Source of the DNA: an uncultured virus (IMG/VR IMGVR_UViG_3300027976_000010)
Taxonomy: Duplodnaviria > Heunggongvirae > Uroviricota > Caudoviricetes
Strand: one strand, 5' to 3'
Length of the DNA stretch: 64,000 bases
Virus record (IMG/VR): IMGVR_UViG_3300027976_000010
Part shown: positions 35,550 to 62,762 of the stretch, piece after piece
Layout of the letters: the number at the start of each line of letters is the position of its first letter
Numbering within the stretch: the first letter of the stretch is position 1
Program-made: the position numbers and the translations under genes
The notes under the pieces: generated by a model
Database searches by the model: none
What the model saw: the letters and a program-made list of their open reading frames with translations, nothing else
Told to the model about the DNA's origin: nothing

Positions 35550-35554
35550 AAATA

Positions 35555-45386: not shown

Positions 45387-45397
45387 TGGGGTGCGTC

Positions 45398-48300
45398 CTA
45401 TCTTTTATCGTAGCTTACATAGCCATAAAGCTTTTTATTCAAAATCTCCAGCGGCTCGCCTTGTCCGCGGCGGGCTAAGGCCACCGGAGATGTTGGGTCT
45501 TTTTCCGAATCCCATATATGTAGTTCGTCAAATAATGAGTCCATTTGGGGGACAAGCATAGAAAGGTTCCTGTTAATTACTGGTGGTATCCACTCCGGGA
45601 CCATTCTGCCAGTTCTTTTGAATCTGTCGTTATTCCGGGTTGCCAAAACATCATCCGGAGCAAAGAAGTAATGGGCGACTACTTTGTAGCCCTTTTTCTT
45701 CCACTTTTCAATATCTGAAGTCCCATCATTGAACTGCCCGCTCGTGTCATAGACCAAGTCAATTCCACGCTTAATCGCCTCGGCCGTGAGTTTTGCGGTG
45801 ATAGCACGGGATTCAATATGGGCCAAATTGGCGGCGTTGGGGTTCATTTCCCCGAACCAATGCCGAACTTCCGGCATAATAATTTTTGCATCGTCGGGAT
45901 CGGCGACGACAGCATTATCGTAACTCGGGATACCCATAAACCCGTTCATCCTAGCGTATGTTTTACCAGTACCGCTAGATCCGCCAAGGATGTATGCGGT
46001 TGGCAAATCTTCCGGATTTCTATCAGCAGAGCCGTCCAGCGCACGTTTTATGCTTCGGTTTATATACGGCATCCATAATCCGTTATATCGCGCGTCGGAA
46101 ATTTTGCCGCCCATCAGCCCGTATTTTTCTGCGGTTGATACTGGGTTTGATGAATTAAGCTCATCAAGACTGTAATCGGTTTTGTAGTCATCTATTAGAC
46201 CCAAATCTCGCGCCAAACTTACATCGACAAACGGCCTAATTGGGCCCGACATTGAGCCACTCGGATCGCTTACCGGCCACCGGTCGGATTCAAATGCAAC
46301 ACCCCATGGCATCAGTGGGTGTGGCATCAATCCCTCTGGAAGGAATTCTTCTGCGCCCTTTTCTCGTCTGACGGCATTAATGCGGGAGATGATTCGCTGG
46401 TTGCGTAATCTTTGTGCTTTGGCCAATATGTTCAATCGCCTTGCAATAGACACCCTCATGTCATGGAATTTATCAATCGAGCCATCGCCCACCGGCGGAT
46501 TTTTTAGCTCAGTTACCGCTCGGCGAATCCATTCGGCGTGACCAAATGCTATTGCATGCTTCCCCTCCGCAATTTCAGACAACGAAACCCAATCGGCTTT
46601 TTTAGCATCTGAGGCAGCCTGGAATTTGGTGTCCCATGGGATCATGAAAAATCCACCGCCGACACGGGTTCCTTTTACGAATCGCGGATCCCAGTCTGGA
46701 GTCGATATTAATCCAAGGGCTTTACCGCTTATCGAGTTATTTAGATCGATACCGACTTCCTCTAGGCCCTCTCGTGTTGCCGTGGTCATGTAGTCTTCGT
46801 CCCCGTCACGAAGTCCGCCCACTAATGCCTTGGCGTTTGTAAACGGACCGGATTTTCTGTCAATCATCAGCAATTGGGCGGTGGTGATGTCATTTCCCTG
46901 CATACGCATGATGACTGCGTCTGATCCTTCTATGAAACTTGTTTTCGCAATTGACCAGGCGTTTGAAGACCAGGTAACATCGTCATCATCGCCATATGTT
47001 AAGTTCAAATCTAGATTAAGTGGACTTGATAGGTTGACGGCAGCCGCGGCTTTTCTAAGCTCTGACTCGGATTCCAGCGCGGGCCCATAAATCGACTGGT
47101 AATATTCGTCCTGCGGCATCTGCGGCCGAGAAACGAACATTTTACCAATCGGTTCGTAGACTAGGCCAAAACTGCCGGCGCCGTCCATTGAGCCACTCGG
47201 AGCATCCTTTTCGCCATCAAATATTTGGGCGTGGGAATCGGTATCAAAAAATAGTTTGGCCTGTTGTCTTATTGTGGCATAGCGCGCGGCCTGTGTCGCA
47301 TCAATCCCGGTGAGTACGTCAATAACATTCATGCGGTAAGCGATTGCGCCGACTAAGTCAGTTGGTTCTTGCCCAATATCTCCGAATATCAATGCGGAGT
47401 TCGTTTGGAGAATTGCGTTTACCGAGAAAGGAGACATCCCATTCCTATAATCGTTGGCGCTAATTTGCTTACTGGAAATCTTAACTACGTATTCGTCAAG
47501 CAGTCTTTCAAATTCGTCAACCTGTTGTTTGTCTGTCGCTATATTAAGAACAATTTCAATAACCCTGTCGACAGTAAACCACTCATCTCCCGCCGCCTTT
47601 ATCATAAATGCACGCGCACGTTCCCTTTGATCATCTGTCTGCCTGGGGTAAAACTGCATTGAGCCTGACGGACCGGCTTCGTTAGGGAAGGAACCCATAT
47701 TGAATGCCTCAGTCGCCGCGATCGTTTCAGCGATAAGCTGCTCTTTTGTAATGCCCAACTCGCTTAACACCCCGGACAATGAGTCGTCATATTTATCATT
47801 GGCACTTGCTATCGCCAACAGTAAGTGATCGGTACCAACAAAATTCTGCCCCTTATTCATCGCCTGTTTTACTGCCCTAACCATTACGGTCCGAGCGTTT
47901 GCGCTAATTGGAACAATTCTGTTCTCCTTGTTACCGTCGGGGGCCCCCGGTGCAATGATCTCATTAATTGCGGTGCGCAATTTATTAATGTCTACATTCA
48001 GCCTCTTTAGAACGCGCCCAGCTATGGTCTGGTTGTACGCCCGCTTGCCGATATTTTCTCGTGCGAGGCCCAATAGGAGGTGCGGGACACTTACTTCGTT
48101 GTGATCAGATTTCTTCGCCTCTTCGTGACCATGAACAATGGCCAATAGGCCCGGCTTTGTATACCTATGGAGGGCCATTGATCCGCTGACGGCATCGCTT
48201 GGCGGTATCTCATCATGTTTGTATTCGTAAGTTAGGTATTCGTAACCATTGCTTCCGAGCCATTCATTAAATGTCGGAATATAAACGTCATCCTTATTTG

Positions 48301-51300
48301 ATGTGGCGCCGTCGTTTGTCACTCGGTCGAGTTGGGCGACATCAAGGACTGTTCGCTTATATTTCCCAAGTAAATTTTTACGTTCCACCCTGGCGTCATG
48401 CTCGCGGTCGAATATCGCAATTTTTCTCAACATCTCGCCGACGGAAATAACCGAATCAAGCGATTCCAGCCGTCCGGCGGTAAATTTCACCAATTGCTCA
48501 ATCGTAGGACCGATGACCGGCTCTAGTGCCTCCTTGAAATCCTGCTGTCTAGCGAGCTGTCTTTCGGCATCCGCAATTCGGCCGAGCATTTCCTCATCTT
48601 CGGCAAATTCCGCATTGGATTTCAGTGCGGCAATTAAACCACTATACATTTCAATTAAGTCCTCAGCCTGATGTAGATCTTGCGTCATCTCCATAACGAT
48701 GCCGTATTGCATTTTGTTATATTCGCGCACCCGGCGCAAATTCTGATTTATAACCGCTCTTTTGGCAACCCATGGCCAACTTCGTTGCTCGCCCGTAATA
48801 ATGTCATCCATGTTAAGTACCGGATACAGATCGTGGGTTTTATTCCAGTCGATCCACGGGAACATTCTGTTTGCCGTATTCCCGGATGATATTCCGGGGA
48901 AGTCATCTCGGGTTTCAATCTCGTATTGCATCATTTCCGAAAGGTCACGTAGCGCTGCCGTCATGCCTTCTGGGATATGGAGCATTTTGGTCGGCTGAAT
49001 CAGGTCATTAATGATTTTTGCAATTGAACCGATTTCATTGGCATCCCTGTTTCTTGCAATATGCGAAATAAATGCACCGAATTCATCCGATGCGTCCATT
49101 TGCATCAATTCAAGGGCCGAAACACCATACTCACCGTCCGCGTCAAAACGCACCTCCCACAGATACTTATCCGGCGAACCACTTAAGTCTTCGTCAAAGT
49201 TTACAATTCCGGCATTTAGGCTAGGATCGGCGCTCCACCTAACCGACCTGTTATAAGGTTTTTTGGCGCCATAACCGGCGTACACAATATCTGGTCCATA
49301 AATTGTCCATTGACCAGTCCAGTCTTTTCGCGGAAAGATTCCAACCATTGGATCGGAACTGGAATTAGTACCAATATGATACGCCAGTTGGTCTGAAAAT
49401 AATTGTGCAACCGTCGACGCTATGCCGTTTGCGGCGTCATTAAATTGTTCGCGGGCTGACGCGGACAGCGTAATCGGGGCGTGATCGTCTATATCATCAT
49501 CTTCGTCCGCCCAGGGTCTATCTATCATGGTCGCGTTTCTCTCATCGTTTGCTTTTCCTATCACCCTGTCAACGAAGTCCAAATCAGCCCCAGGCAAATC
49601 GTATATGGACTTGAGTACCCTGTCAAAGAAATGCGCAGCTACCTGGTCGTCGACAACGCCTGGATTATCAAAATTCATAGACGCATTGAAACTCGCCAGG
49701 GCGAATTTATCAATTACATGGTTCGCCATGCTCTGAATGGAAACCATAAATCTCGCTTTTTGCATCCACTGCTTAGAATCTTTGGATGAGTTTAACTTGC
49801 GGATAAATAAGTTATATAGTCTGTCTGCGTTTTCGGCTGTTGATTCATCAAGTGTGTTTCTTGACGCCGCATACGATCGCGCGAATTCGTTCAACCAGTC
49901 TGCGTCCGATCCGGTTATCAAAACTGGGCGCGGATCCAGGGAATTAACAACCATACTTACAAAGTCGCTAAATGACATCCCCGGCCCATCGGTATCATCA
50001 ATATCTTCGTCCGGCTCAAGCATGTCCCTAAAATCGCCATCCATGTCGGCTCCGTCATATGCGCCCCGAGGTTGATTTTCCAACCGCCATAGTGACAAAA
50101 TGGCTTGTTCAAAAAGATTATTCATGGCACGCCCGATGCCGGGGAAAGCGCCATACTCATCCATTTGGTCGACGCTAAGCTTCATTCCGTCAATTGCTTC
50201 GCCGATAGCAACTTCATCCGGCATCGTAATTGAAAAGTTTGGCTCGTCCACCGCGGAGGTGGCGTCTAGATCAAACTCGTCATCGTCGATGAGATTCTGC
50301 GCATCATCATGGTTTTCTAAAACCCCACCGTTCATGACCCAATTCAACATTTTGGCCATAGACGGCCTCCAGCGATTTAATGCATCCTGGTCTTTTGCGG
50401 CGCCGTTTGCGCGGAGACGAGCGGATGCCGGGCCGGTTTCTGGGCTATACGGTTCCGCGACAACGGTCGGGGGAAATTCTGGAAGAAATACGCGAACGCT
50501 CGGATCGTCCGAGTCCCAAGCCGGGGTCGGGCCGGCTACCTGTTCAACATCTTCACCCACTCTTCTATTTGCCATTGAACCACTCGGACTATCTCCCGAA
50601 ATCAAATCTGAGGCATTCTGATAGTCTATTGGCGCATTGGATTCCGTTAATATCGAGCGTATTGTTTCTGCTCCGACTCCATACTTTCTCATCGCCTGTC
50701 GTTTTGACATACCGCCGGCCATGTCGGCAATAACCTTGTCGGCGTTGGCCATTATCCAAATTTTCTTTCCTACGGCGTCGGGGGCGATTCCGGCCCGCCT
50801 AAGGTCGTGCAATATGTTCCTTACCGTATTTGCATTAAACCCGGTTACGCCGATAATGTCCTGTTCTCCGTAGCCTGATTGGGCCAAGGCCAGCACGGCA
50901 TCTTTTTTGGAAGTTGGCATTACGGACAGCAAGTATTTGCGAACTTCGCTATCTGATGGATTCGTTTTGCCCACGGCCCTACCAAAGGCGTCCATTGTTT
51001 TATTTTTTTGTAATTTTTTAAGTTGTGCTAGCTGTAGCACGGCACGTTTCCCAAGTGTTTTTTCAATTGCGGCATCGCTTCGGTGCGCATCACTCATTTC
51101 AAGAAGTTTTTGGATAACCGACCAGTTACCGGCGATCCACAAAAAATGCCCATTTGGGGCTTTTATCTTGTCAATCTTTTTATTTTTGGACCAGATGTCG
51201 TTTAATTGAACGCCAAGCGCATTGGCCACACGCGAGGCCGCCGCGGTTGATAATCCGAATTTACCAGACCGAAGTTTCTTGATTACACCTGGTTGTGTAT

Positions 51301-54300
51301 TAAAAAATGCCGCGAGCGCAACATCATTCAGAATCCCCAAAGACCCATATTTTTCAAAGATCGATTTTGTGGGAAATTTACCGCTTCGTACGAGGTCTGA
51401 ATCCTTCAAGCCGACCCATGAGAATATCGGACTTTCTCCGGTCGGGGTAACCGAATTCATCCCAAAAATAGCTTCGGATATATTTGAGCGACGGAGAGCC
51501 GAAGCCGTTGCGCCATAGGGCCCATCAAGGGAGCCGTAAGCCTCTGCCATTTCATTTAATTGGAGTTTCTGGAATTGACGCATTTCTTCCGGTATGGCGG
51601 TTTTGCCCATATCCGAATCGAGCCAATCAAGTTGCTCCCCATAGGTCATAAATCTCCAATCATCTGGAGTTAGTGCATCAAATCTTAGGCCGCCATACCG
51701 CTTCGTCTGTTCAATTTCGGCAGAAAATTTACGTAGTGAATTTATTGACGAAGTTGGAATGCCGGCACTACGGGCAGCCCGTTCTATCTGATCGGATACA
51801 TAAAGCGTATTGGCGTTGGATTTTGCGATGTGTCTTAATGCCAGTTCTATATTATCCAGGGATGCTAGTGCAATATGTTCTGGCGTATCCAGTATTGCCT
51901 CAATCGTAATGCCAAGTTCCCCAAGCTCTGGTATTTTTTCAGATATTATTCCCGCGGCTGCATTTTTTGTATAGCCATCTTTTAGGATGTAGGCCATTTC
52001 TTGCGCCCCGGTAATTAAAATTGCAAGTTTCCGTGACTGCAAATCTGCGTCTAGCGCCCGCCGTAGTAAATTCAGGTCCAAGTTTAAGCGCTCGGCGATA
52101 GTGGACATCGGTGAGGTTTTTGATTCGTCACGGATTGAGTTCATAATTTCTGATCGCTCGTGCTCTATCAGGGATATGCCTCTATCAAATATCCCATGTT
52201 TTAAAATTGTTTTATCTCGGCCAATATTTCGTAGGTCGGAAAGAATTGTTGCGGACACCGCCGGAAGAATGGATTCCGCCAATTCAGAGAATACGGCGTA
52301 GTCGGGCGTTAATTCATTTGCGTGGAGGCGGCTTCGCTCTAAAAGAATTGAATTTCTTACAGCGTCTGAAATTGTTGCATCTGGCCCCGATCGCAGATTA
52401 GATACTAAATTTCTAGAAAACCTACTTCTTATGGAGCGGGCTGTCCGTTGTAGCCCAAGGACGGATTGTGCAATTCTTGAAACTTGTATATTCCCTGATA
52501 CCAAAGCGCCAAGCGCCGACTGTCGCGCAATCTTGGAGCTGGCATTTATGTCCGTCAGATCAAGGCCCTTTAATGCATTCAGCTGGCGGAGCACATGCTG
52601 CGAAAACTCTTTTTCGGCAGGCGTCATCAGCACGCGTGCATCCCGTCGCTCGGCTTCTTGTGCCTGAACGCCCTGAGCGTAAATTGCGACTCCAGTGGTC
52701 GGATGTCTCCCGACCCGCTTCATCGACCCAGATGGCGACGATCCATCGCCCATAATGTTGTTAGGGTCATCGCTTAGTGCCTGTAGCGCATCATCGGTCG
52801 CTCTCTGAAGAGCCCTAATCCGAATAAATTCGGCTGCGTTATCTGCTAATTCCCGTATTTCCTTAACTCGTTCCTGAAGTTCCGAAACTGTTTCATCATA
52901 GCCACGGAGAGCCCGAAGACTCGCCTCTGCCTGGATGCTGAGATCTTGGATCCCGGCTTCAAGTTGCAAAAGTATCGGGCCGTAATTTGCATCCCACTTT
53001 TGTAGATTATACAAATAATCACGCGGAGTGGTTGTGATCGCATCGTAGCGCTCAAGTTGTTTACGTGTATTAAGTAGCGTCCGTTGAGAGCTCACACGTT
53101 TTAGTATTTCTGCCCGTATTCGCGCCTGATACTGTTTTGATGTGACGTCTTTGGATAATTCGGCATCCTGTATAAGCGAGTCGATATGAAAAAGCTGACC
53201 CGCTATAGACTCGTTTGAGTCTATTATTTCAACAATTTTTGCGAGCGCAAATGAGCGAGCGAGTTCTTGTGCCCTGTCCCTGCCGGCTTGGCGTGCGCGA
53301 GAAAGCATTCTGTCAAAATTATCAATTTGACCATTTTCACGAGCGACGGTTTTCAGGCCGGCAATGACCGCTTCTTCCAGGTAGCCAGAGGTCTGCGCAA
53401 TTTCTATTTCATCAAGCGTGTCTGGTCCGGTGAACAGAGGCCACCAGGAATCCCGAAGGGCCTTACTGGATAGGGCTTTTGAGCGAACAATTTTCTTCTC
53501 TTTTTCTAAGCGGGCCGTATCGATAAGACGACTTCTACGTTCCGCCCCGAAACCGGTAGTGCGTCCTATCGGCGATTCGGTTACTAATCCAGATGACAAC
53601 GGCAGGGTTTCTATGTCCATCCAGTCGCCCTGTGATTCAACATACGCCAGGATCTTGTCCATATCCAATGATGACGGGTCTGATTCAAGTAGCTGTAAGA
53701 GCTTATTCGTTTCTGTCCCGTATCGGGTATTTTCGTGTAGCCACTCCGAGCCAAAAGAATGCTTCGCCCCAGTAAAATTATCGTGACGGTCGCGCAGAGC
53801 GACGGCTGTTGGGTGGGTGCGGATATCAAAATTTTGTGGGCGCAGCGATAAATCATCATCGGTATTAGCGTCGTATGGTTCAAATTCGGCGATGGCATCA
53901 GGCGCCTCGGGGCCGTCCGCAAGAAGACGCGCCGGGACATAGAGCATTAATCCTCTTGAGTCAGCCCTAAACTCGGAGTGCGGAAACTCCGACACGATTA
54001 TTTTTTCAAGTTCTATATTGATAGCTTTCTGTATAGAAATTAGACGTTTTTCTATATCTGACGCGGTGACAGCGCCCGCATTTGAAAATAAATTCATTGC
54101 AGTTCCATCAAAAGTCTGGCTGTCAATTCCCGTATAGTCATTTGGGATATCAATTCCGTTATTGCGCACAATTTCTATTGCGCGTTTTTCGGCTATACTA
54201 AACTGGGAACGCGCTTCATCGTCATGCTTTTTACGCGGTGTCCGCTTTGCATCAAGAAGAGCGATATACCGCGGACTAACATTCGGCAGTGCGGACAACA

Positions 54301-57300
54301 TAGATCCGCTTGGATTTTCGTTATCGATTTCAAATACGTCATCGGCTTCCTCCCACTCACTGTCCGCCGGTTGGACATTGTATTTTTTTATTTCTGATCT
54401 GTGGCGGCGCTTTTGTTCTTGGAGGCGTGCAAACTCTTCTTCATCCAAGGCCCGTGATACGGCGTCATCGTCATCACGATTAATGAATTGTTTTAGCAGG
54501 CTGGCGACATCGCTATCCAGCTGTGCCCCGGCATCGTTTGCCAGTTGTGTCATTTCCACTCGATCAGCAGCGATTGCACTTTGTTTCTTGCCGAGCCGGG
54601 TTTGTGCGTATTGCAATTTGCGCGCCGCCTCCGCATACTCGCCGATTGGAAGAATTTCCCTACCGCCACTGAAAAAATAGTCAACGAGCGATACATAGTT
54701 TCCGAAGTCGTCGGCATTTGTCCCATCTGGCAATAAATCTCCGAAGGCGCTATTGGCGGCAGTCGTAATTAGATCCGTTATGTCATCCGGTCCATATCCA
54801 TCGGCATTGGTATACGTGGACACCCCGTGGGGTGACTTGGAAAACTCGGCATTGATCCTGGCGAGCTGTTTTTGCATTTTTATTCTGGCTTGGTTGATGG
54901 ACCTTTTATTGGCCAGGCCGGGATTACTTTTATGAAGCGCCGGCAGAATGAATTTCTCAAATAGTCGTTCAATTTGTTGAGACGTCAACGCGCCTATTAT
55001 CCGATTTGCGGATTCTGTCGTACCATCGTATGAACTGATTGTGTCAAATTGAATCGAGCGAATTATATTTTGGTCATCCGCCGAAAGATCGGCAATGTCA
55101 TTGGTGGTCTCGTTTGACCCAGCAATACGAACCGATCCGACGCCGTCAACGGGGTACTTCTTGACAAAATTATAGAGCGTGTGCCGAAGTTCATTTTTGG
55201 CTTTATTCCCGTGAATTGCCAAAACGAACGCGTGTCGTCGCATTCGTGCTGTCGACTCATTTGCAACATCTTGCAGTTCGCGTGCGATGTCGCTATCTAC
55301 ACCCGTTAGCGGTTTGACTACATGGAACCATATTGCACCCATATCGTTATAGTTATCAATTGGGAATAACGCCCGAAGCGCGGCGTCAAAGGAGATCTCA
55401 TCTTGGCTTGCACTTAAAATGATTTTATCAATTACATCATCGGCGAGCTGAACTTTTGTATTTTCCTTCATCAAAGATGCGATCGTGCGTAATTGGTTTC
55501 TACCAGTTTGGGTAGCGGAATAATGCGAAATACCCAAAGCGGACTGCTGTCTGAATTGCTCTGTCCGTTCGGCTTCGTTATCCTCTCTACTTAATGTCCG
55601 AGGTTGCCCCTGCCCAGAGCTTACGTGATCGGAAATAACAGACAATTGTTCCCGTGACAAACTGTCGACAAAATCCTCGGCTGAATTAACGGATTCGTCT
55701 ATACTATTAATCAGGAAATTTTGCATTTGCTGTTGCGGAGTTGGAGCGTACTGGACAGCGGCCGGATCAGCGTCGCCGTCGGCACGATCATTGGTTATCC
55801 GAAGTAATTCCGTCCTAATTTCGGGCGACATTTCCGATGATGGGCCGTTCAAAAGTTGTGCCAAAAACGCACGGTCAAAGTCAAAATTTTCACCGAGAAT
55901 TTCGGCTGCCTCTTTGGGGGTTGTAAACTCAAGTAATTCATTCCGCGTTGGTTCCGGGGCCCAAATGTCCGGCACTATGGCTGGTGCGTCATCTCCACGA
56001 ACGGATAGCCGACCATTGATATGGTCGACAAATTCCCCACGTCGCTTAATATCGGTCGAGTTTGGGAGCCCAGACGATATTTCATCAAATATTGTGGATA
56101 TTTGACTATCGGTAAAACCATAAATTTTACCCGAAAAGGTTACATCTGAATCGGTGGCCTCCAGCGCAAGGTTATGTAAATCCCTTAGGGCATTTGTTTT
56201 CGGGAATGGGCCGAGCGCGACCCAGTCGGCGTCAATTATTTTCTCTAATTGAGATTTTTTCCATTGCGTTACCCTGAATTGGCGCTCTTCATCGGGCGAC
56301 ATTTCAAGTGCCTTCTTATTGGCCCTAAGAATATGTAGCCGATCAAAGTCTTGCCGTAGTAGCGCCATTTTTTCCGGATCGGGGATCTTCCACCAGTCAA
56401 TATTTGAACTCTCGTCGTTTCCCGCACCCTGTGTCATTGACCCAGACGGGTTTGCGGTATCTCTAACCTGAAGGTCCGTTACGCCCATTTCCGAAAGCAA
56501 CGCGCGAATGGCTTCATCATCATAGAGATCAGCGTGGGATCCCTGTGCTAATAGTTCTTTTATTTCATAAAATGACAAATTCTTATAGTCGTCCATAATG
56601 ATCGACAAAATATCTTTATTCGCATCGAGTTCTTCTATGGGTATTCCGCTCAGCGGATTAACCGGTGCGTCTAGGTCGATTTTGATTTTATTCCAGAGGC
56701 TCGGTTCGGTTGCCGCCAAAATATTAACAATATCTTCGGCTGTTGCGAAATCAAAATTATTCCATCGGTTCAATTGCGCGTTCACTCGTTTTGTTAATGA
56801 ATGTACCGTTTCGGAGTCAGTTTCTAAATTCGCTGAAAGTATTGTTTGCAATGCCGTTGTTTTTAATGACGACGAAATATCCCCGTCGTACCGCCCGGGG
56901 ATTCTTCGCGGTCTGAAATTATCAAACGTTTGTTGCGGAGCCTTTTCTTCTATGATGTCGTAAAGCCCATCAATTCGTTTGTTGAATTCCATCATCATTT
57001 TGATGCGGTCGTTATTGAAAAATTTCCGCACGCCGGTTTCCTTGCCGGTTTTTGCATTCTCCATAACCATATCTGGATCCCGAATCCAGGTTTCAAACCT
57101 GTATGCAAACTGGGTTGGATTCAGTTCCTCGGAGTGATACGACAGAATATCGCTTACGGCCTTTGATCCAGCAACACCGCTAGACGGAGTAAGCGAAAAT
57201 GTAGCCAGGGTGCTAAACATGTCAGCATAATATGGATACCTCCCCCGTATGTACATTCCGACTCCGAGTTCATCGGCAATATACTCACTTATATTTTTTG

Positions 57301-60300
57301 CCATCTCTGAATTTTTATGTAACGATGATTTCGGGAAAATAGCCCCATCTCTTCCGCCGGGAGTGCGATATATCGGCGGAAACTGTTTGCCCGATGTGAG
57401 TAATCGTAAATATGCGTTTCTGGACACTTCGTCGGTCCAGTTGAACGTAATACTAGAAAGCCCTGCCGGTTCCTGCTGCGACTCCAACCGATACTTCCAA
57501 AATAATTCATTATTGTCATCCATGCTTTGCCAATGTTTGGCAAACTCTGGCGAATCATGTAACCCCGTGACCAAATTGGACAGTGTTAGCTGATGTGGTG
57601 AATAACGACCGGCCATGGAGCCAGAAACGGGGGTTTCATCGTCGCCCTCCCATTCAAACTTCTTCGGCGCCCCCCGGGGAGGAGGCGTTACTTCGTTGAT
57701 GTTACGGACGGTTACGCTAATCGCCACCCGCAAGTTTTCGGCCCGTGCGGTCTGGTTATTTGTAATTGCATCATCCAATAGGCTATTCTGCATTGTTAGG
57801 CGCTCATTAAGTAGCTCTATCGGCTTAAGTCCCCTGCGACGCTTACTACGGCTCCGTACCGAGTATAGATTCACACTGGAAAACGCAGAAGCTAGGAGCG
57901 GGTCGTCTTGGTATTTTTTTCGCATGCGGCCGGCGAAGGTATCAAATGATCTAGTAAGTTCCGCAGTTAAGCGCAATGGAAGACCGCCCTGGATCATGTC
58001 GTCGACATGGCTTGAAATTATTTCAAGTGCGGTTTTGAGCCCGCTGGCCTGCGCCCACTGCTCGTTAATTAGGTCGTCAAGAAGGGTTTCAAGTTGCAGT
58101 AGCTTATTGGATATCGGTACCGATGCGGCGGATTCGTAAATTAGATCACTTGCCGCGGCATCAAATGCGGCCCAGCGCAATTCAAGACTGGCGTATTTGC
58201 TATTTTTTAACTTAGCAAATCTTTCTCTGGGACTTCGTATGCCGCCCATTGAGCCGGTCGGGTCCGTTGACGAAATTTTCCGTGGAAGACTCCCAACAAA
58301 GGGCCGTTTTGATGAATAGAACGGGAGGAAGTGGTCGGCCCATTGATAAACTTCCTGCGTCAAGCCGTCGATTAAATCTCTATCTTTTGGCGTGCGGGCA
58401 CCAACTGATGCGGCGGTCATCACCAGGGTGATGGCCCTGAATAGGCTCATTTCTCCTTTGAGTACGGACGCTGGCGTCTTGGGATTAAAGGCATCCAGTT
58501 TTAATTTTTCGGTTTTTTGATCATACGATGTCGCATAATCTTCCAATCTAAGCGTTCCGTTTCTCGCCCGTTCGTACATCGTGTCTAGTAGTTCTGCCGC
58601 CTCCCGGACAAGCTCCGCCTGTCGGTATCGCGAGCCCAGGGATATCCGCATGGATCCATTTCTTTTTTTCGGGAATTGATACCCCCGCGCGATCTCCGTC
58701 CTAATATTGTCGGCCACAGGGCTCCAGGATCCAGATTCCCTTTTGTCACGGGGATAGTTTTGGCCGATATGCCCGACCATGGATCCACTCGGACCGTACC
58801 CAAAAGGGGCGGCGTTTAGGTAGTTTTCAACCAGTGGATCAATGTCGTAATTTTCTCGATCAATTAAATCGTCCGTAATAAGCACCATTCGCCGTGACGC
58901 CATATTGGCATATTCATCCATGTTCCCGGCAAGCCCGGCAAGTGCGTGTTTTGCGTCCCCCAAAACCCCAAGGGCCGTCATTGTATTGGGGTATACCGAA
59001 TCATTATTTCTAAATTGACCACGATTGTTGCCCTGAATGTCGTTATCATATTCTCCCAGCGTGTGTAAAAAGTTGGGGATGCTATTCGCGTAGCGGTCAA
59101 TTAAAAGCGCGGCGGGCGATGGCAGAATCATTAAATCAAAAATTTTGTTTGATTGTTTTGGATTGCCACCGAGAAGGCCGTCGATTAAGGCTCGTATGGA
59201 ATTTGTATAATCGTTATTGTTGACTCGGTCCAGCTGATACTGGCGAAGGCGCAGGGCGTTAGCTATCAGGACAAGCGGATTAGAGGAGCTATCCGTAATG
59301 CGCTGCGGGATTCTGTAATGAACATCCTCGATCGGATAGTTTGTCAGCGTGGCGTTGATATTGTCATCAAGCGGATAATTGTCGGGGCCGAACCCCTCGT
59401 TGATCTGTCTGTGGGATAGCCATGATTCCTTGGCCGAGTCAAGAAGGACATCGGCCGTCTCAGGGTCTACGGCCATAAACTCAGCGCGTTTTTTGGGGCT
59501 CATTTGTTTCAGGGTGCGGTGTAACATTCGGCGTTTGCCGTATTGCAATAAATTTGCCCATAGTTGGATTTGGTCGTTGTTGTCGACCAAAAATATTGGA
59601 TTATCAGAATAGAGATATGAGGTAATAGATTCAAATGCTTTTGCGTTTTCCGTGCTGAGCCTGGTAATATTCCTGTCCCTTTGCGGGGGATTTAATTCGG
59701 AAGCGAGAGCTATGGCGTCACCGGGAGAAGCTGGGGAATATTTCTCTATCGTGCTCCCGTCTAAATAATTGTTGCGCGCGAAAATGTCCCGCATTACTCT
59801 TCGCAACTTATCTTCGCCAATCGGCGCTATAACCGCGGCGACATGCTCATTTCTTGTAGAAAATGCTTGTTTTGAGTTGTCAAGATGCTCTGCGACAGCA
59901 AGCGGCACATCGTTATCAAATAAGTCCTCACTTTTCCTCAATAATCCATTTTCTTTCGCAGCGGCAATTATTTCTAAGCGCGCTCTTCTTCTAGCTTCGG
60001 TATAATCAACAAGATGCGTATCTAGCAAATCAAATAATTGTCCCATTTTTGCTAGTACGGCAGTTGATTCTTTGTCAGCTAGTAACTGTTCAAGAAGATT
60101 GTTCATTATTCCAAATGAGCTATCCATTAAATCTGAATCATGGACCAGAACGCCATGCGCCGCGACATACATTGCGAATGAATTCAGGGCCGACCCAAGG
60201 ATGGTTTCGCGTATTGGCTCGCTATTAGCGTTACGGACGGAATTTGATACATCGAGCAGGCGTCGCAATAAGACATTTCCATAGTCATGCGGGTAGACGG

Positions 60301-61711
60301 CGCGGTTTGCGGTAAAACCGGCACGAAGTTTATTCCCCTCCGGAAAGGTTTGCGCATTTTCGCGTTGCACGGGAAACTTTAATTGGCTAACCGCCGCCCT
60401 AAAAATATCCGTTATCGCTATAATCCCCTGAGCCCCAAATGACTGAAGTGGAGTGGTATTCGGGGTCATGCTTTCAATCGTTGTTGGCAGCGTCCATCCG
60501 GACAGGTTGGAAAATAAAACTTCTTCGTCAATTCCGGGATCAGCCACTGCGTACGTGTCCATGATCCCCCGTGAAAAATCAGGCGCCTGAGAGACGGCTT
60601 TTTGGTATAACCTAAAAGCATCCACGTAGTCGGCCTCGTTAAGCGTCCCGGTATCGATTTTGGTGATGACGCGGTCTGCCGAATCCGCAAATTGGCCACC
60701 CCAATAGGCAACCGCCGCATCTGCGGTTTCTATATCACCCCATATGAAACTCCGCAGCGTCGACCGCGCGGCGTCGTCTTGGTACATCTGGGCGAAGAAA
60801 TTGTTGCGCCCACTTCTGTCATTCCGCTGAAGCAAATTACTGCGTTCGCGCTCCGGGGTTCCATCAAGCCATTTGGCAATTGCGCCTTTTACGCGACGAA
60901 CAAGTTCGTCATTCTCCGGTAATATGAATCTAGCCGGAGTGACCTTGTCGCCACGCATTGCTCCCGTAGCGGCAGGTACAGTATCTCTAGCTGTGTTCCT
61001 TCTGGGTTCGGTGTCAATTTTGGGAGCCAGGGAGTCTGTCGGAGCGATTGACGCTCGGCGCGTTGATGGCTTTTTAGGAGAACGCGCTATGGACGGTTTA
61101 TCACTAGGGGCAGCGCCCGGATCTGGGCGTGTCGGTAGATCGGGGCCATCAATATCGCTTGCTCGATTAGCGGTATCGCTTAATTCTGGCGCGTCAGGCG
61201 TTGACGGAGCGGGGATGGCGACGTCCGAGCCGGGGGTCGGGTCGATAACGCCGCGACCCCTATTTATCGTTGGAATTCCCTCTAGGACAAATGGGTCATT
61301 ATCGGCATTTCGCGCCGTAGCTGGATTCATATCCCGTTGAGGTCCGCCGATCGGTGGACCAAGTGCCTTAACTTCGTCGGTTTTTTTCTTTAGTATTCTG
61401 GCAATACGTCTAGACAAATCCCGCTCTGATCTTCGTCCGGCTAAAACTCCCACTCCGGTTACCCGTCGGTAATCTGATTCATTAGAGCACGGCATCCAAA
61501 CAAATCCCCCAGAAACAGAATTATACTGACGAATCCCGATGCAGCCGAGCTGGCGAGATCTTTCCCGGGCGGACTCTTTATCGACAAAGACATCGTGGCC
61601 GTCGGACCGAACTCGGCGAGGCCCGAATCCTACTGATTTTTGATTTATCTGGTCGGCGCCATCATCTGGGGCGATGGGACAGCAGTCACCAGTGTCTGTA
61701 TTTTCGGCCAT
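45398..61711 (-). CDS. Giant 5437-aa multidomain head-module protein: N-terminal WMPC motif, HTH-like segments, Clp-N, Nudix, zeta-toxin-like kinase; 13 GSM/GAM linkers
   Basis: Uninterrupted 16.3-kb ORF; Clp-N (HLLLGL...HLLLAI), Nudix box (GG....E....A.RE..EEVG), P-loop GGSSGTGKT. Confidence 0.9.
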   Translation of the reverse strand: MAENTDTGDCCPIAPDDGADQINQKSVGFGPRRVRSDGHDVFVDKESARERSRQLGCIGIRQYNSVSGGFVWMPCSNESDYRRVTGVGVLAGRRSERDLSRRIARILKKKTDEVKALGPPIGGPQRDMNPATARNADNDPFVLEGIPTINRGRGVIDPTPGSDVAIPAPSTPDAPELSDTANRASDIDGPDLPTRPDPGAAPSDKPSIARSPKKPSTRRASIAPTDSLAPKIDTEPRRNTARDTVPAATGAMRGDKVTPARFILPENDELVRRVKGAIAKWLDGTPERERSNLLQRNDRSGRNNFFAQMYQDDAARSTLRSFIWGDIETADAAVAYWGGQFADSADRVITKIDTGTLNEADYVDAFRLYQKAVSQAPDFSRGIMDTYAVADPGIDEEVLFSNLSGWTLPTTIESMTPNTTPLQSFGAQGIIAITDIFRAAVSQLKFPVQRENAQTFPEGNKLRAGFTANRAVYPHDYGNVLLRRLLDVSNSVRNANSEPIRETILGSALNSFAMYVAAHGVLVHDSDLMDSSFGIMNNLLEQLLADKESTAVLAKMGQLFDLLDTHLVDYTEARRRARLEIIAAAKENGLLRKSEDLFDNDVPLAVAEHLDNSKQAFSTRNEHVAAVIAPIGEDKLRRVMRDIFARNNYLDGSTIEKYSPASPGDAIALASELNPPQRDRNITRLSTENAKAFESITSYLYSDNPIFLVDNNDQIQLWANLLQYGKRRMLHRTLKQMSPKKRAEFMAVDPETADVLLDSAKESWLSHRQINEGFGPDNYPLDDNINATLTNYPIEDVHYRIPQRITDSSSNPLVLIANALRLRQYQLDRVNNNDYTNSIRALIDGLLGGNPKQSNKIFDLMILPSPAALLIDRYANSIPNFLHTLGEYDNDIQGNNRGQFRNNDSVYPNTMTALGVLGDAKHALAGLAGNMDEYANMASRRMVLITDDLIDRENYDIDPLVENYLNAAPFGYGPSGSMVGHIGQNYPRDKRESGSWSPVADNIRTEIARGYQFPKKRNGSMRISLGSRYRQAELVREAAELLDTMYERARNGTLRLEDYATSYDQKTEKLKLDAFNPKTPASVLKGEMSLFRAITLVMTAASVGARTPKDRDLIDGLTQEVYQWADHFLPFYSSKRPFVGSLPRKISSTDPTGSMGGIRSPRERFAKLKNSKYASLELRWAAFDAAASDLIYESAASVPISNKLLQLETLLDDLINEQWAQASGLKTALEIISSHVDDMIQGGLPLRLTAELTRSFDTFAGRMRKKYQDDPLLASAFSSVNLYSVRSRSKRRRGLKPIELLNERLTMQNSLLDDAITNNQTARAENLRVAISVTVRNINEVTPPPRGAPKKFEWEGDDETPVSGSMAGRYSPHQLTLSNLVTGLHDSPEFAKHWQSMDDNNELFWKYRLESQQEPAGLSSITFNWTDEVSRNAYLRLLTSGKQFPPIYRTPGGRDGAIFPKSSLHKNSEMAKNISEYIADELGVGMYIRGRYPYYADMFSTLATFSLTPSSGVAGSKAVSDILSYHSEELNPTQFAYRFETWIRDPDMVMENAKTGKETGVRKFFNNDRIKMMMEFNKRIDGLYDIIEEKAPQQTFDNFRPRRIPGRYDGDISSSLKTTALQTILSANLETDSETVHSLTKRVNAQLNRWNNFDFATAEDIVNILAATEPSLWNKIKIDLDAPVNPLSGIPIEELDANKDILSIIMDDYKNLSFYEIKELLAQGSHADLYDDEAIRALLSEMGVTDLQVRDTANPSGSMTQGAGNDESSNIDWWKIPDPEKMALLRQDFDRLHILRANKKALEMSPDEERQFRVTQWKKSQLEKIIDADWVALGPFPKTNALRDLHNLALEATDSDVTFSGKIYGFTDSQISTIFDEISSGLPNSTDIKRRGEFVDHINGRLSVRGDDAPAIVPDIWAPEPTRNELLEFTTPKEAAEILGENFDFDRAFLAQLLNGPSSEMSPEIRTELLRITNDRADGDADPAAVQYAPTPQQQMQNFLINSIDESVNSAEDFVDSLSREQLSVISDHVSSGQGQPRTLSREDNEAERTEQFRQQSALGISHYSATQTGRNQLRTIASLMKENTKVQLADDVIDKIILSASQDEISFDAALRALFPIDNYNDMGAIWFHVVKPLTGVDSDIARELQDVANESTARMRRHAFVLAIHGNKAKNELRHTLYNFVKKYPVDGVGSVRIAGSNETTNDIADLSADDQNIIRSIQFDTISSYDGTTESANRIIGALTSQQIERLFEKFILPALHKSNPGLANKRSINQARIKMQKQLARINAEFSKSPHGVSTYTNADGYGPDDITDLITTAANSAFGDLLPDGTNADDFGNYVSLVDYFFSGGREILPIGEYAEAARKLQYAQTRLGKKQSAIAADRVEMTQLANDAGAQLDSDVASLLKQFINRDDDDAVSRALDEEEFARLQEQKRRHRSEIKKYNVQPADSEWEEADDVFEIDNENPSGSMLSALPNVSPRYIALLDAKRTPRKKHDDEARSQFSIAEKRAIEIVRNNGIDIPNDYTGIDSQTFDGTAMNLFSNAGAVTASDIEKRLISIQKAINIELEKIIVSEFPHSEFRADSRGLMLYVPARLLADGPEAPDAIAEFEPYDANTDDDLSLRPQNFDIRTHPTAVALRDRHDNFTGAKHSFGSEWLHENTRYGTETNKLLQLLESDPSSLDMDKILAYVESQGDWMDIETLPLSSGLVTESPIGRTTGFGAERRSRLIDTARLEKEKKIVRSKALSSKALRDSWWPLFTGPDTLDEIEIAQTSGYLEEAVIAGLKTVARENGQIDNFDRMLSRARQAGRDRAQELARSFALAKIVEIIDSNESIAGQLFHIDSLIQDAELSKDVTSKQYQARIRAEILKRVSSQRTLLNTRKQLERYDAITTTPRDYLYNLQKWDANYGPILLQLEAGIQDLSIQAEASLRALRGYDETVSELQERVKEIRELADNAAEFIRIRALQRATDDALQALSDDPNNIMGDGSSPSGSMKRVGRHPTTGVAIYAQGVQAQEAERRDARVLMTPAEKEFSQHVLRQLNALKGLDLTDINASSKIARQSALGALVSGNIQVSRIAQSVLGLQRTARSIRSRFSRNLVSNLRSGPDATISDAVRNSILLERSRLHANELTPDYAVFSELAESILPAVSATILSDLRNIGRDKTILKHGIFDRGISLIEHERSEIMNSIRDESKTSPMSTIAERLNLDLNLLRRALDADLQSRKLAILITGAQEMAYILKDGYTKNAAAGIISEKIPELGELGITIEAILDTPEHIALASLDNIELALRHIAKSNANTLYVSDQIERAARSAGIPTSSINSLRKFSAEIEQTKRYGGLRFDALTPDDWRFMTYGEQLDWLDSDMGKTAIPEEMRQFQKLQLNEMAEAYGSLDGPYGATASALRRSNISEAIFGMNSVTPTGESPIFSWVGLKDSDLVRSGKFPTKSIFEKYGSLGILNDVALAAFFNTQPGVIKKLRSGKFGLSTAAASRVANALGVQLNDIWSKNKKIDKIKAPNGHFLWIAGNWSVIQKLLEMSDAHRSDAAIEKTLGKRAVLQLAQLKKLQKNKTMDAFGRAVGKTNPSDSEVRKYLLSVMPTSKKDAVLALAQSGYGEQDIIGVTGFNANTVRNILHDLRRAGIAPDAVGKKIWIMANADKVIADMAGGMSKRQAMRKYGVGAETIRSILTESNAPIDYQNASDLISGDSPSGSMANRRVGEDVEQVAGPTPAWDSDDPSVRVFLPEFPPTVVAEPYSPETGPASARLRANGAAKDQDALNRWRPSMAKMLNWVMNGGVLENHDDAQNLIDDDEFDLDATSAVDEPNFSITMPDEVAIGEAIDGMKLSVDQMDEYGAFPGIGRAMNNLFEQAILSLWRLENQPRGAYDGADMDGDFRDMLEPDEDIDDTDGPGMSFSDFVSMVVNSLDPRPVLITGSDADWLNEFARSYAASRNTLDESTAENADRLYNLFIRKLNSSKDSKQWMQKARFMVSIQSMANHVIDKFALASFNASMNFDNPGVVDDQVAAHFFDRVLKSIYDLPGADLDFVDRVIGKANDERNATMIDRPWADEDDDIDDHAPITLSASAREQFNDAANGIASTVAQLFSDQLAYHIGTNSSSDPMVGIFPRKDWTGQWTIYGPDIVYAGYGAKKPYNRSVRWSADPSLNAGIVNFDEDLSGSPDKYLWEVRFDADGEYGVSALELMQMDASDEFGAFISHIARNRDANEIGSIAKIINDLIQPTKMLHIPEGMTAALRDLSEMMQYEIETRDDFPGISSGNTANRMFPWIDWNKTHDLYPVLNMDDIITGEQRSWPWVAKRAVINQNLRRVREYNKMQYGIVMEMTQDLHQAEDLIEMYSGLIAALKSNAEFAEDEEMLGRIADAERQLARQQDFKEALEPVIGPTIEQLVKFTAGRLESLDSVISVGEMLRKIAIFDREHDARVERKNLLGKYKRTVLDVAQLDRVTNDGATSNKDDVYIPTFNEWLGSNGYEYLTYEYKHDEIPPSDAVSGSMALHRYTKPGLLAIVHGHEEAKKSDHNEVSVPHLLLGLARENIGKRAYNQTIAGRVLKRLNVDINKLRTAINEIIAPGAPDGNKENRIVPISANARTVMVRAVKQAMNKGQNFVGTDHLLLAIASANDKYDDSLSGVLSELGITKEQLIAETIAATEAFNMGSFPNEAGPSGSMQFYPRQTDDQRERARAFMIKAAGDEWFTVDRVIEIVLNIATDKQQVDEFERLLDEYVVKISSKQISANDYRNGMSPFSVNAILQTNSALIFGDIGQEPTDLVGAIAYRMNVIDVLTGIDATQAARYATIRQQAKLFFDTDSHAQIFDGEKDAPSGSMDGAGSFGLVYEPIGKMFVSRPQMPQDEYYQSIYGPALESESELRKAAAAVNLSSPLNLDLNLTYGDDDDVTWSSNAWSIAKTSFIEGSDAVIMRMQGNDITTAQLLMIDRKSGPFTNAKALVGGLRDGDEDYMTTATREGLEEVGIDLNNSISGKALGLISTPDWDPRFVKGTRVGGGFFMIPWDTKFQAASDAKKADWVSLSEIAEGKHAIAFGHAEWIRRAVTELKNPPVGDGSIDKFHDMRVSIARRLNILAKAQRLRNQRIISRINAVRREKGAEEFLPEGLMPHPLMPWGVAFESDRWPVSDPSGSMSGPIRPFVDVSLARDLGLIDDYKTDYSLDELNSSNPVSTAEKYGLMGGKISDARYNGLWMPYINRSIKRALDGSADRNPEDLPTAYILGGSSGTGKTYARMNGFMGIPSYDNAVVADPDDAKIIMPEVRHWFGEMNPNAANLAHIESRAITAKLTAEAIKRGIDLVYDTSGQFNDGTSDIEKWKKKGYKVVAHYFFAPDDVLATRNNDRFKRTGRMVPEWIPPVINRNLSMLVPQMDSLFDELHIWDSEKDPTSPVALARRGQGEPLEILNKKLYGYVSYDKR

Positions 61712-61788
61712 ATTATCCCTGCGTCAGAATACTTCGTGTGCGTTTATCGTACCAATAATATTGGTGAACGCGGGAAGGTAGCGTGAGA

Positions 61789-62331
61789 TTACGCTGTGGG
61801 GAATTGATTTAAGTATTTTCTTTTGCCGTCAGAAACGCTAAACATTTTTGAAAGTGCACTCGCGGAAACTATTCCGCCGCCGTCCAGGGACGACAAGCCA
61901 ATTACCCCGCGTTCGGTTAAACGCTCCCATTTGGCACCCCGCGCCTTGCGTTTTGATCTTCGTGGGGAACCGTTGTCCAAACTGCCAAGACGTTGAATTA
62001 TCGCCGATCGGGGGAGCACAATTGGCTTATTTCTTTTTATGGCCAAATATTTCCTGGTTCCCCCTATTTTGCCAATTTGATTTTCGGATGTTGGGCTACG
62101 TCCTCCCCCTTTCGCACTACGTTTTTGGACGGTTCCGGCGGTACCGTACTGCCCAGATTTTGCCGATTGTTTTTTCAGCCATGAGTCGCTCTCCGCGGCT
62201 TGCGAAAGTCTCTGTAGGGTATCATGATCGGCGCACGGCATCCACTCACCCTTGTTGCCCTTGTGGACGCCGGAGCACCCCATATACCTGGCGATTTTTA
62301 ACGCCTGTCTTTTTTGATTCCCGTCATTCAT
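61789..62331 (-). CDS. Basic head-module protein with a DUF3721-like A..MGC.G.H....WMPC motif
   Basis: Motif shared with the N-terminus of the giant protein; ATGA coupling. Confidence 0.7.
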   Translation of the reverse strand: MNDGNQKRQALKIARYMGCSGVHKGNKGEWMPCADHDTLQRLSQAAESDSWLKKQSAKSGQYGTAGTVQKRSAKGGGRSPTSENQIGKIGGTRKYLAIKRNKPIVLPRSAIIQRLGSLDNGSPRRSKRKARGAKWERLTERGVIGLSSLDGGGIVSASALSKMFSVSDGKRKYLNQFPTA

Positions 62332-62753
62332 CGCGGTATCTCTGCGTCGCCGACCCAAATTGTGAATCCTTGAAGTTCCTGTTTTGATGGCTTAATGCCG
62401 ATATGGCGCATATAGCTCATCGCCGCCGCCTCTGGGGTGTCGTATAATTTACGGTACGAATTGGCTTCCTCTATATCTATTTCGTATTCGGCGTCTATGG
62501 CGGCAAATGAATCATATTCCTTTATCCCGCGTGTGAAAGCAGCCAATTCGCCTAAGAGCAACTCCCTGTAGCGTCGCCCTACACCCAGCGCTCTATAGGA
62601 GAATGGCGGATATTTGGCCAGATTGTCATAGGCGTAATAATCTTCCTTAATTTCATTTGTGGCATTGTCGAGTACGGCCGTATCGTCGTCTGATAAAGCC
62701 TCTGCGCGGAGCGTTGCTTTTTTGAAAAGTTCAGCAATTGATTGCGTATCCAT
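62328..62753 (-). CDS. Hypothetical protein
   Basis: ORF in the head module. Confidence 0.65.
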   Translation of the reverse strand: MDTQSIAELFKKATLRAEALSDDDTAVLDNATNEIKEDYYAYDNLAKYPPFSYRALGVGRRYRELLLGELAAFTRGIKEYDSFAAIDAEYEIDIEEANSYRKLYDTPEAAAMSYMRHIGIKPSKQELQGFTIWVGDAEIPR

Positions 62754-62762
62754 AATCTAAGT

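Follow-up and report, generated by a model that had tools for sequence, protein, structure and literature searches.

A giant head-module protein of an uncultured aquatic phage and its sister chains as candidate cargo polyproteins of an S78 prohead protease

The 64,000-nucleotide (nt) stretch of DNA analyzed here, referred to as the window, derives from an uncultured member of the Caudoviricetes (IMG/VR record IMGVR_UViG_3300027976_000010) and carries, at 45398..61711 of its minus strand, an open reading frame (ORF) for a protein of 5437 amino acids (aa; P0001), which is divided by 13 short motifs ending in methionine. We consider it fairly probable that this giant protein is one of four cargo chains encoded in the head module of the phage, which would be addressed by a common tag, cut at the joint motif by an S78 prohead protease, and whose pieces would enter the host together with the DNA.

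The ORF, reported in a preliminary description of the window, is present on the minus strand and open across 5437 codons. The next gene downstream encodes an HK97-type capsid protein, which agrees with the position just upstream of the capsid gene given in that description. Since the gene was recovered whole and free of indels in contigs from four public DNA runs, it is not regarded as an assembly artefact. Across these contigs, 14 single-nucleotide polymorphisms were observed, all of them transitions and eight synonymous, and none affected a motif codon. Near-identical DNA was present in six DNA runs from four studies, labelled as freshwater or estuary metagenomes, some of which may be the source; no RNA run appeared among the matches. 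In addition, a viral contig of 74,450 bp (G006) is identical to the window from 44430 to 64000 and reaches about 55 kb beyond the giant gene in the upstream direction; it does not include the remainder of the window. The relatives used for comparison were G002 (173,962 bp, with terminal repeats and rated complete), G003 (78,965 bp) and several partial contigs. The nearest record, G001, carries neither the protease nor the giant gene.

The joints were located with a script that finds every G-[S/A]-M in the giant protein. All 13 Met codons were found at the positions previously given (Table 1), and the count of ten exact SGSM sites was right (eight PSGSM and two VSGSM), the remaining three being PTGSM, NGSM and TGAM. 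From the composition of the protein, 0.05 SGSM and 0.67 GSM would be expected, compared to the 10 and 12 observed, respectively. No [ST]G[SA]M was detected in the other stop-to-stop frames of at least 50 aa of the window. As proposed earlier, codons vary synonymously: the eight PSGSM sites have seven distinct 15-nt spellings and therefore do not form a DNA repeat, conservation being at the protein level. Sites 252 (TGAM) and 1021 (NGSM) have neither Pro/Val at position -4 nor a counterpart in the relatives.

Codon usage also bears on the idea that the Met codons are internal translation starts giving separate module proteins, which we regard as highly improbable. Every module indeed starts with ATG, and in the AEAGM spelling found in relatives a GAG codon for Glu followed by GCN would, judging from the codon table, put GAGG five bases before the ATG. 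However, the 12 bases preceding the ATG encode P-S-G-S with synonymous variation, that is, with conservation at the protein level. Further, the last Ser is encoded by TCN in all 12 GSM sites, so no Shine-Dalgarno-like run precedes the joint ATGs, and internal starts were rejected on this codon evidence.

The motif is not confined to the giant protein. On G006, the head module is ordered as terminase (minus strand), a portal-MuF fusion, an ORF of about 2750 aa, then ORFs of 607, 1257, 1748, 703 and 1481 aa, followed by two small ORFs, the 5437-aa ORF and the capsid gene. An unbiased k-mer count returned SGSM as the most over-represented 4-mer in the G006 ORFs of at least 600 aa, with 20 occurrences vs. 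0.2 expected. The strict motif [PVI][ST]GSM was found 24 times in four polyproteins (11,244 aa): nine times in the ~2750-aa chain, twice in each of the 1257-aa and 1748-aa chains, and 11 times in the giant protein. It was absent from the 34,143 aa of all other G006 six-frame ORFs of at least 80 aa, and when the four chains were shuffled 1000 times, strict motifs averaged 0.04 per shuffle and never exceeded one.

The chain with nine motifs, which adjoins the portal-MuF gene, opens with an S78 prohead protease (PF04586, 1.5e-11, 45.1 bits with a cut-off of 21; phrog_80, 5.8e-29). Pfam Peptidase_S78 and the protease of Gordonia phage Gray served as queries against G006 and G002 to locate it, and its gene is on G006, outside the window. 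The protease is 41% identical (6.3e-35) to Gray gp34, which is annotated as a capsid maturation protease, and the 3190-aa orthologue of the chain in G002 (G002 85088-94657) likewise starts with the protease. All six aligned proteases, two of them annotated, share an invariant His (within 'VVWGH') and Ser (within 'QEWSIGY'), which we take to be the catalytic pair of HK97 gp4. The interval separating the giant and capsid genes contains no protease gene. A protease inside the giant protein was also considered and dropped, because the proteases of Gray and of Brevibacterium phage Cantare gave no significant BLASTP match there. Separately, a conserved 'FFTNPSGPMKKPNG' was observed about 60 aa after the protease domain (P0004, P0030, P0032 and G002 85088-94657) in all lineages but G006 and with any spelling of the joint motif; it may be an ancestral self-release site.

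The preliminary description had named the prohead protease and the peptidase encoded at 384-1004 as possible cutting enzymes. The likeliest enzyme is now the S78 domain encoded outside the window, with the HslV-like gene staying as a rival. That the motif is cut by some other enzyme, be it this HslV-type peptidase, a protease hidden in unannotated segments or a host protease acting after injection, appears unlikely to us. The HslV-like protein begins with MTT, as active Ntn peptidases do, and is conserved in G002 (62% identity) and G003 (49%); the capsid protein has no motif; and segments 2-10 of the giant protein (aa 252-4511) gave no family match in Pfam or PHROGs, all of which would suit another enzyme. 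Conversely, the HslV-like gene is a neighbour of whiB and distant from the head module, no peptidase family was detected in any of the 14 giant-protein segments (Pfam E <= 0.01, PHROGs E <= 0.001), and a chain that has nine sites carries the S78 protease as a physical fusion. Moreover, to our knowledge no HslV-type peptidase acts as a sequence-specific processing enzyme, which counts against this candidate.

The motifs separate recognizable domains in the C-terminal part of the giant protein. The Clp-N, Nudix and zeta-toxin-like domains described before were confirmed by Pfam: segment 4512-4684 carries Clp_N in two stretches, as a double repeat (PF02861, 8.2e-20, 71.2 bits), segment 4842-5153 carries NUDIX (PF00293, 6.5e-08, 33.1 bits with a cut-off of 21.1; phrog_1198), and segment 5154-5437 carries Zeta_toxin (PF06414, 6.9e-20, 71.8 bits with a cut-off of 22.3). 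Compared with solved structures, the Clp_N module matched 39 chains, nearly all of them N-domains of ClpC, ClpC1 or ClpC2 (best match 4.5e-11). A Nudix-box-like GGLRDGDEDYMTTATREGLEEVGI is readable in module 13 (G-x5-E-x7-REGLEEVGI, with Gly at the first 'U' position), as is a Walker A-like GGSSGTGKT in module 14. The protease chain contributes sigma-70 region-4 modules as its segments 2 and 3 (G006 29172-37481; PF04545, 1.1e-07 and 9.9e-10), which, if packaged, would be injected transcription factors.

Domain edges coincide with the joints in both chains. The Pfam envelopes of Clp_N, NUDIX, Zeta_toxin, S78 and Sigma70_r4 lie near full length inside single segments, and BLAST matches between the protease chains of G006 and G002 start at residues 1-3 of segments 5, 6, 8, 9 and 10 and reach the segment ends. 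Residue 4515 of the giant protein aligns with residue 3 of ClpC1, which places Ala4513 at the position of ClpC1 Met1 and the motif Met one residue earlier. The linker placement of the motifs claimed earlier was borne out for the C-terminal sites in an AlphaFold model of aa 4490-5437, built from a nine-lineage alignment (mean predicted local distance difference test score, pLDDT, of 61.8). All four C-terminal motifs fall in segments with pLDDT <50 (model residues 1-23, 184-228, 335-356 and 642-672), between better-folded parts. The chance of four such placements is about 0.01, which is suggestive rather than conclusive.

No match was obtained for aa 1-2996 of the giant protein, neither among solved structures nor by tblastn against 50,697 phage records; a search for near-length homologues returned only the giant protein itself; and segment 9 gave, in a protein atlas, only helix-turn-helix leads (0.82), below the tool's meaningful level. 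The giant protein had no match to Phage_Mu_F.

When the giant N-terminus was searched against the relatives, it matched several other large ORFs per genome, by which the conserved tag of about 50 aa was detected. Its consensus is KALGxPIG..NPxTARNADNDxFVLEGIPxINRGRGVIDPTPG, with 13 invariant columns in ten copies from three lineages. The tag occurs once per polyprotein: in the 1257-aa chain it stands at the N-terminus, with PTGSM immediately after it, and in the protease chain it lies beyond the protease and another ~250 aa. A scan of viral contigs recovered 50 loci on 28 contigs, several per contig, where the distance between the ORF start and the tag is about 37-60, about 130 or about 450-590 residues. 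Each of the 12 distinct ORFs with a protease that were recovered also contained the tag. When 1.84 billion representatives were searched exhaustively with a profile, only 40 proteins were returned, 35 of them at E <= 1e-10 and nearly all 852-6391 aa long. The tag was absent from the fetched regions of Gray and Cantare and from the rest of the window. An AlphaFold model of the protease-scaffold-tag segment (12-row alignment, mean pLDDT 39.2) was unusable, and a complex prediction for the capsid protein and the tag scored 0.00, which speaks neither for nor against binding.

The tag is relevant to a further explanation, namely that the motif serves repeatedly as a peptide for docking or binding, or simply as a flexible hinge, in a chain that stays whole in the capsid as a giant internal or ejection protein. 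The motif is short and Gly/Ser-rich and sits in linkers, and some phages package very large uncut proteins, such as the N4 virion RNA polymerase (according to the part of PMC5512222 available to us). Nevertheless, a hinge needs neither an invariant Met nor a fixed five-residue spelling per lineage, and the motif ends exactly at a native-type domain N-terminus. The docking reading of SGSM is not favoured because a different and far better conserved tag occurs once per polyprotein, and, as judged from its sequence, this tag would be the better candidate for docking or addressing. We therefore rate docking or hinge function as quite unlikely. Of the two functions proposed in the preliminary description, the protease site is well supported by comparison (module boundaries, four chains and lineage-specific spellings), while the docking peptide is not favoured.

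Further support for cleavage comes from the relatives, in which the motif is spelled differently. The giant proteins of G006, G002 and G003 are collinear and 31-38% identical. At the G006 joint columns, G002 and a further lineage (L005) have P-[V/I/S/A/T]-G-x-M, and G003 has (A/P)-E-A-G-M or PAGGM. An alignment of the C-terminal joints from nine lineages showed PSGSM, GP[VI]GKM, AEAGM, NAGM, PTASM and DSGAM, and DTGRM was an additional spelling in relatives; Met is constant throughout, usually with A/S/G next. A Met-ended motif lies within a few residues of sites 3713, 4512, 4685 and 4842 in eight of eight other lineages, and of site 5154 in seven of eight. Conservation of the motif in homologues, raised in the preliminary description, thus holds for nine of the 13 sites, which are conserved in position in at least one other lineage, and fails for four.

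The spellings are also enriched within each genome. EAGM is the top 4-mer in G003, with 21 occurrences vs. 0.32 expected, and the respective motifs occur inside vs. outside the polyproteins 20 vs. 2 times in G002 and 21 vs. 2 times in G003. Among 37 tag-bearing representatives (E <= 2.2e-7), 14 contain one Met-ended 4-mer at least three times, where at most 0.12 would be expected; the repeated 4-mers were SGSM, VGAM, EAGM, TASM, SGAM, SGNM, SGRM and TGRM. A 5154-aa protease chain (P0030) has 17 [D/E]-[T/S]-G-x-M sites. A G-V-S-G-x-M spelling was observed in another locus (L046). Four distant phages (L038, L040, L044 and L047) have ORFs of more than 4000 aa, open at the locus edge, which share only the Nudix or the zeta module, and no repeated Met-ended motif was found in the part covered.

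Module swapping at the joints, which the preliminary description had envisaged, was not seen in the giant protein: its 14 segments are collinear with those of the G002 and G003 orthologues, and shuffling was discarded as unsupported. Only the protease chain differs in module content between lineages, ranging from ~2750 to 5154 aa with lineage-specific insertions.

These comparisons also address the possibility that the Met residues are start-codon fossils of once-separate, now fused genes, and that the motif has no present function. The M-[A/S/G] pattern does resemble natural N-termini, the Clp_N module begins like native ClpC1, and the nearest cultured relatives have separate genes in the interval from portal to protease. 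However, about 20 sites per genome retain Met and the four residues preceding it although the lineages are only 31-38% identical overall, and each lineage's spelling is uniform across all its sites, which requires ongoing selection. Fossil start codons are thus a very unlikely explanation.

Site profiles were derived from 24 (G006), 20 (G002) and 21 (G003) sites. Within a lineage, positions -4 to -1 are fixed, with the exception of a nearly unconstrained -1 in G002, and Met is invariant. The next residue (+1) is A/S/G in 15 of 24, 16 of 20 and 17 of 21 sites, respectively, and the hydrophobic content around the sites is 0.20-0.26 vs. a background of 0.28-0.29. Because -1 is nearly free in G002 and Met never varies, we favour Met as the P1 residue, which would place the cut after Met.

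Several observations weigh against cargo chains cut by the S78 protease. Firstly, we infer the cutting, packaging and ejection of the chains, and the sites would fit a cut before Met as well as one after it. Secondly, four of the 13 sites (252, 1021, 1155 and 1759) have no Met-ended counterpart in the relatives. Thirdly, the quality of the AlphaFold model is no more than moderate: 308 of its 948 residues have pLDDT <50, and a low-confidence placement is therefore not rare. In addition, the protease domain is 78-90% identical (first ~180 aa) across lineages with different spellings, and being so conserved it does not demonstrate that enzyme and site have co-evolved. Prohead proteases classically act on the capsid protein, yet this protein does not contain the joint motif, nor is there a shared Met-ended site at the variable end of its delta domain; it would be either cut by other rules or uncut. 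A 'GQSM' in the capsid protein (aa 90-93) was dropped as a cleavage site, since it is not conserved in relatives. Finally, a second conserved peptidase, the HslV-type protein, is present.

Under the preferred reading, in which tagged chains are cut by the S78 protease, the conserved tag would bring each polyprotein into the procapsid, one tag per chain. The protease, itself the N-terminal domain of one chain, would then cut all chains at P-[S/T]-G-S-M, most likely with Met as P1 and Ala/Ser/Gly as P1', which would release 12 to 14 products from the giant protein and about 29 from the four chains. The pieces would be retained in the head and pass into the host together with the DNA; this step is proposed because of the analogy with the internal proteins and Alt of T4, the ejection proteins of phiKZ and SPN3US, and the polyvalent-protein concept. 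The released set would include a ClpC1-N-domain look-alike, a Nudix hydrolase and a zeta-type kinase, plus the sigma-70 region-4 modules from the sister chain, and the pay-off would be that many effectors are co-packaged at a fixed ratio via one address tag. As guesses at function, the host Clp system may be decoyed by the ClpC1-N-domain look-alike, the target of the Nudix module may be a nucleotide signal or an RNA cap, the substrate of the zeta-type kinase may be a cell-wall precursor or some other nucleotide sugar, and transcription may be redirected by the sigma modules.

The phage is probably large, about 150-175 kb, and probably infects Actinobacteria. This host is suggested because the kin of its capsid protein are from Gordonia and Brevibacterium phages, a whiB gene is present, and Clp_N is closest to the ClpC/ClpC1 type. 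The most far-reaching form of the proposal, to which we give somewhat less than an even chance, is an aquatic actinophage-like clade with capsid cargo in the style of RNA viruses: more than 11,000 aa in four chains, with one tag and an HK97-type protease, would yield about 29 injected host-takeover proteins, from a Met-ended site that drifts in spelling.

A phage makes its first move on its host with the proteins that it packs in the head and injects along with the DNA, and how these are selected, loaded and kept at fixed ratios is known for few model phages. If correct, the proposal would give a testable set of rules, one tag per chain and one cut mark per joint, for a large group of uncultured freshwater and estuarine phages. 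It would also provide the first defined multi-site specificity for the S78 family, a very common HK97-type capsid protease (..G-x-M, then A/S/G), and a catalogue of about 29 predicted injected proteins, mostly of unknown function, directed against abundant aquatic bacteria, probably Actinobacteria. The lineage-specific spellings would amount to a natural experiment on the co-evolution of protease and substrate, and the logic of tag plus site could find further use in filling laboratory phage capsids with proteins of choice.

Table 1. Coordinates of the giant gene, its joints and modules, and neighbouring features in the window.
Feature	Position	Strand	Remarks
Giant head-module polyprotein gene	45398..61711	-	Collinear orthologues of 5347 aa (G002) and 4975 aa (G003)
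DUF3721-like Cys-containing N-terminal element, aa 45-78	61478..61579	-	PF12518 1.7e-05, 24.9 bits (below the 27-bit cut-off)
Conserved ~50-aa tag, aa 104-167, candidate capsid-targeting element	61211..61402	-	Common to G006, G002 and G003 polyproteins
Joint 1, AATGAM (Met 252), codon 60958, doubtful	60956..60970	-	No counterpart in relatives
Joint 2, PSGSM (Met 978), codon 58780	58778..58792	-	Aligned PSGAM in G002
Joint 3, RNGSM (Met 1021), codon 58651, doubtful	58649..58663	-	Not conserved
Joint 4, PTGSM (Met 1155), codon 58249	58247..58261	-	PIGKI in G002, without Met
Joint 5, VSGSM (Met 1366), codon 57616	57614..57628	-	PVGRM, PVGSM in G002 and L005
Joint 6, PSGSM (Met 1759), codon 56437	56435..56449	-	No aligned motif in relatives
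Joint 7, PSGSM (Met 2471), codon 54301	54299..54313	-	PVGSM in G002 and L005
Joint 8, PSGSM (Met 2997), codon 52723	52721..52735	-	Aligned PVGNM, PVGSM, PAGGM, NAGM, TASM
Joint 9, PSGSM (Met 3713), codon 50575	50573..50587	-	Met-ended motif in 8/8 other lineages
Joint 10, VSGSM (Met 4512), codon 48178	48176..48190	-	Directly before Clp_N; 8/8 other lineages
Joint 11, PSGSM (Met 4685), codon 47659	47657..47671	-	8/8 other lineages
Joint 12, PSGSM (Met 4842), codon 47188	47186..47200	-	8/8 other lineages, shift of up to 2 residues
Joint 13, PSGSM (Met 5154), codon 46252	46250..46264	-	7/8 other lineages; PVGKV in G002
Module 11, Clp_N double repeat, ClpC1-N-domain-like	47660..48178	-	PF02861
Module 13, NUDIX hydrolase	46253..47188	-	Domain at module residues 102-222
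Module 14, zeta-toxin-like P-loop kinase (predicted)	45401..46252	-	phrog_16619 'minor head protein' 6.4e-17
Major capsid protein, HK97 fold family	43688..45058	-	phrog_10 5e-59; PF05065 6e-43; directly downstream of the giant gene
189-aa upstream ORF with DUF3721 element	61789..62358	-	PF12518 5.3e-08
C-terminal part of 1481-aa head-module ORF, start outside the window	62763..64000	-	No family match, no motif
HslV-type Ntn peptidase, begins MTT	384..1004	+	phrog_1040 6.8e-21; Pfam Proteasome 7.3e-05

The giant protein is headed by a DUF3721-type Cys element (GDCCPI .. LGCIG .. WMPC), a second copy of which occurs in the upstream 189-aa ORF. The element is conserved in the G002 and G003 orthologues, stands before the tag in all giant orthologues and may bind metal. 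At the other end of the window, a whiB-like regulator (1038-1409, plus strand) adjoins the gene for the HslV-type peptidase; this peptidase, together with the ClpC1-N-domain module, taken here as packaged, suggests that the phage group interferes with host proteolysis.

Downstream of the giant gene, a thioredoxin gene (42971-43297, minus strand) directly follows the capsid gene, with the gene for a class II (B12-type) ribonucleotide reductase nearby (38951-40873, plus strand); no tail genes were found after the capsid gene within the window. The window also contains 12 tRNA genes (20468-22315, plus; 35474-35549, minus; 37962-38036, plus), ten of them in one cluster and two with a CAT anticodon. 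The cluster is interrupted by a NUMOD3 homing-endonuclease-like ORF (20562-21266). LAGLIDADG_3 matches were found inside a 921-aa primase/helicase-like ORF (27914-30679, plus) and inside the large terminase (G006 24325-26670, minus), and these insertions are probably inteins or inserted homing endonucleases. Between 12000 and 17500, the GC skew is strongly negative (about -0.2) and the ORFs, on both strands, are short, most of them below 120 aa; this stretch may be a block of small early genes.

With regard to known systems, full-text literature searches (subscription journals being outside the coverage) returned no description of the motif, the tag, the polyproteins of this phage group or Met-ended prohead-protease sites, and the part of the COBRA paper on whiB phages available to us (PMC10914622) does not mention the motif, tag or polyproteins.

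The closest concept is that of the polyvalent proteins (Iyer et al. 2017, PMC5512222), which, in the portion of that paper at hand, carry many unrelated effector domains, from 2 to 15 per chain, and are predicted to be delivered along with the DNA and freed by proteolysis. Phage proteins in which a zeta-like kinase is fused to MuF are noted there, and processing is ascribed to an embedded zincin-like metallopeptidase (MPTase), frequent but not universal, with no cleavage motif defined in that portion. Like the polyvalent proteins, the 5437-aa chain combines unrelated effector-type domains (Clp_N, NUDIX and Zeta_toxin along with nine unassigned segments), and its gene lies among virion genes, between the portal-MuF and capsid genes. 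Unlike them, it has no match to MPTase or another peptidase family, and it has a shared tag and a defined site that recurs along the chain and is linked to an S78 prohead protease carried by a sister chain. It also differs from MuF-fused polymorphic toxins in that it has no MuF domain; on G006, MuF is on the portal protein (PF04233, 5.8e-07).

The internal proteins IPI-III and Alt of T4 carry an N-terminal capsid-targeting sequence, are trimmed by gp21 at a simple motif and are then injected. They are single proteins with one cut each, and the protease belongs to family S77 and recognizes L/I-x-E. Here, in contrast, the chains have up to 14 modules, the protease is of the S78 family, the motif is ..G-x-M, and the 50-aa tag is unrelated in sequence. 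Prohead proteases of the phiKZ type have the motif S/A/G-x-E. In phiKZ, 201phi2-1 and SPN3US, a large mass of ejection proteins resides inside the head and several are cut at a short consensus by gp175/gp245, according to the available portions of PMC5694885, PMC10052503 and PMC7411985. Those proteins differ from the present chains in being mostly encoded by separate genes and cut by another protease lineage at another motif, and those portions describe no 5000-aa chains with a dozen sites.

Among cultured phages, the Gray/GMA6 group of Gordonia phages and Cantare have the closest capsid protein (46-52% identity; 46% for Gordonia phage capsid proteins) and protease (41%). They have accessory genes, including an RNA ligase and a VIP2-like toxin, between portal and protease. 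In these phages, however, the accessory proteins are encoded by separate genes, the protease has 417-455 aa, and the tag is missing from the fetched regions.

The preliminary description had drawn an analogy with the cargo-loading peptides of encapsulins, with which the motif shares a short Gly/Ser-containing peptide and an HK97-fold shell. This analogy is not favoured: terminase, portal and capsid genes of a true phage are present, the motif is internal and repeated rather than terminal, and the tag suits docking better. A formal parallel is offered by the polyproteins that RNA viruses of eukaryotes make, where a 3C/NIa-type protease lies within the set and cuts at a short consensus site that differs between lineages. 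There is no homology between the two; the phage is a tailed one with double-stranded DNA, and the purpose would be the co-packaging of cargo and not expression from one RNA. Taken together, the strategy of head cargo cut by a prohead protease and the existence of polyvalent proteins are already known or predicted, whereas the scale (13 sites in a single chain and some 25 across the four chains), the putative Met-ended site for an S78 protease, its lineage-specific spellings and the shared tag are new.

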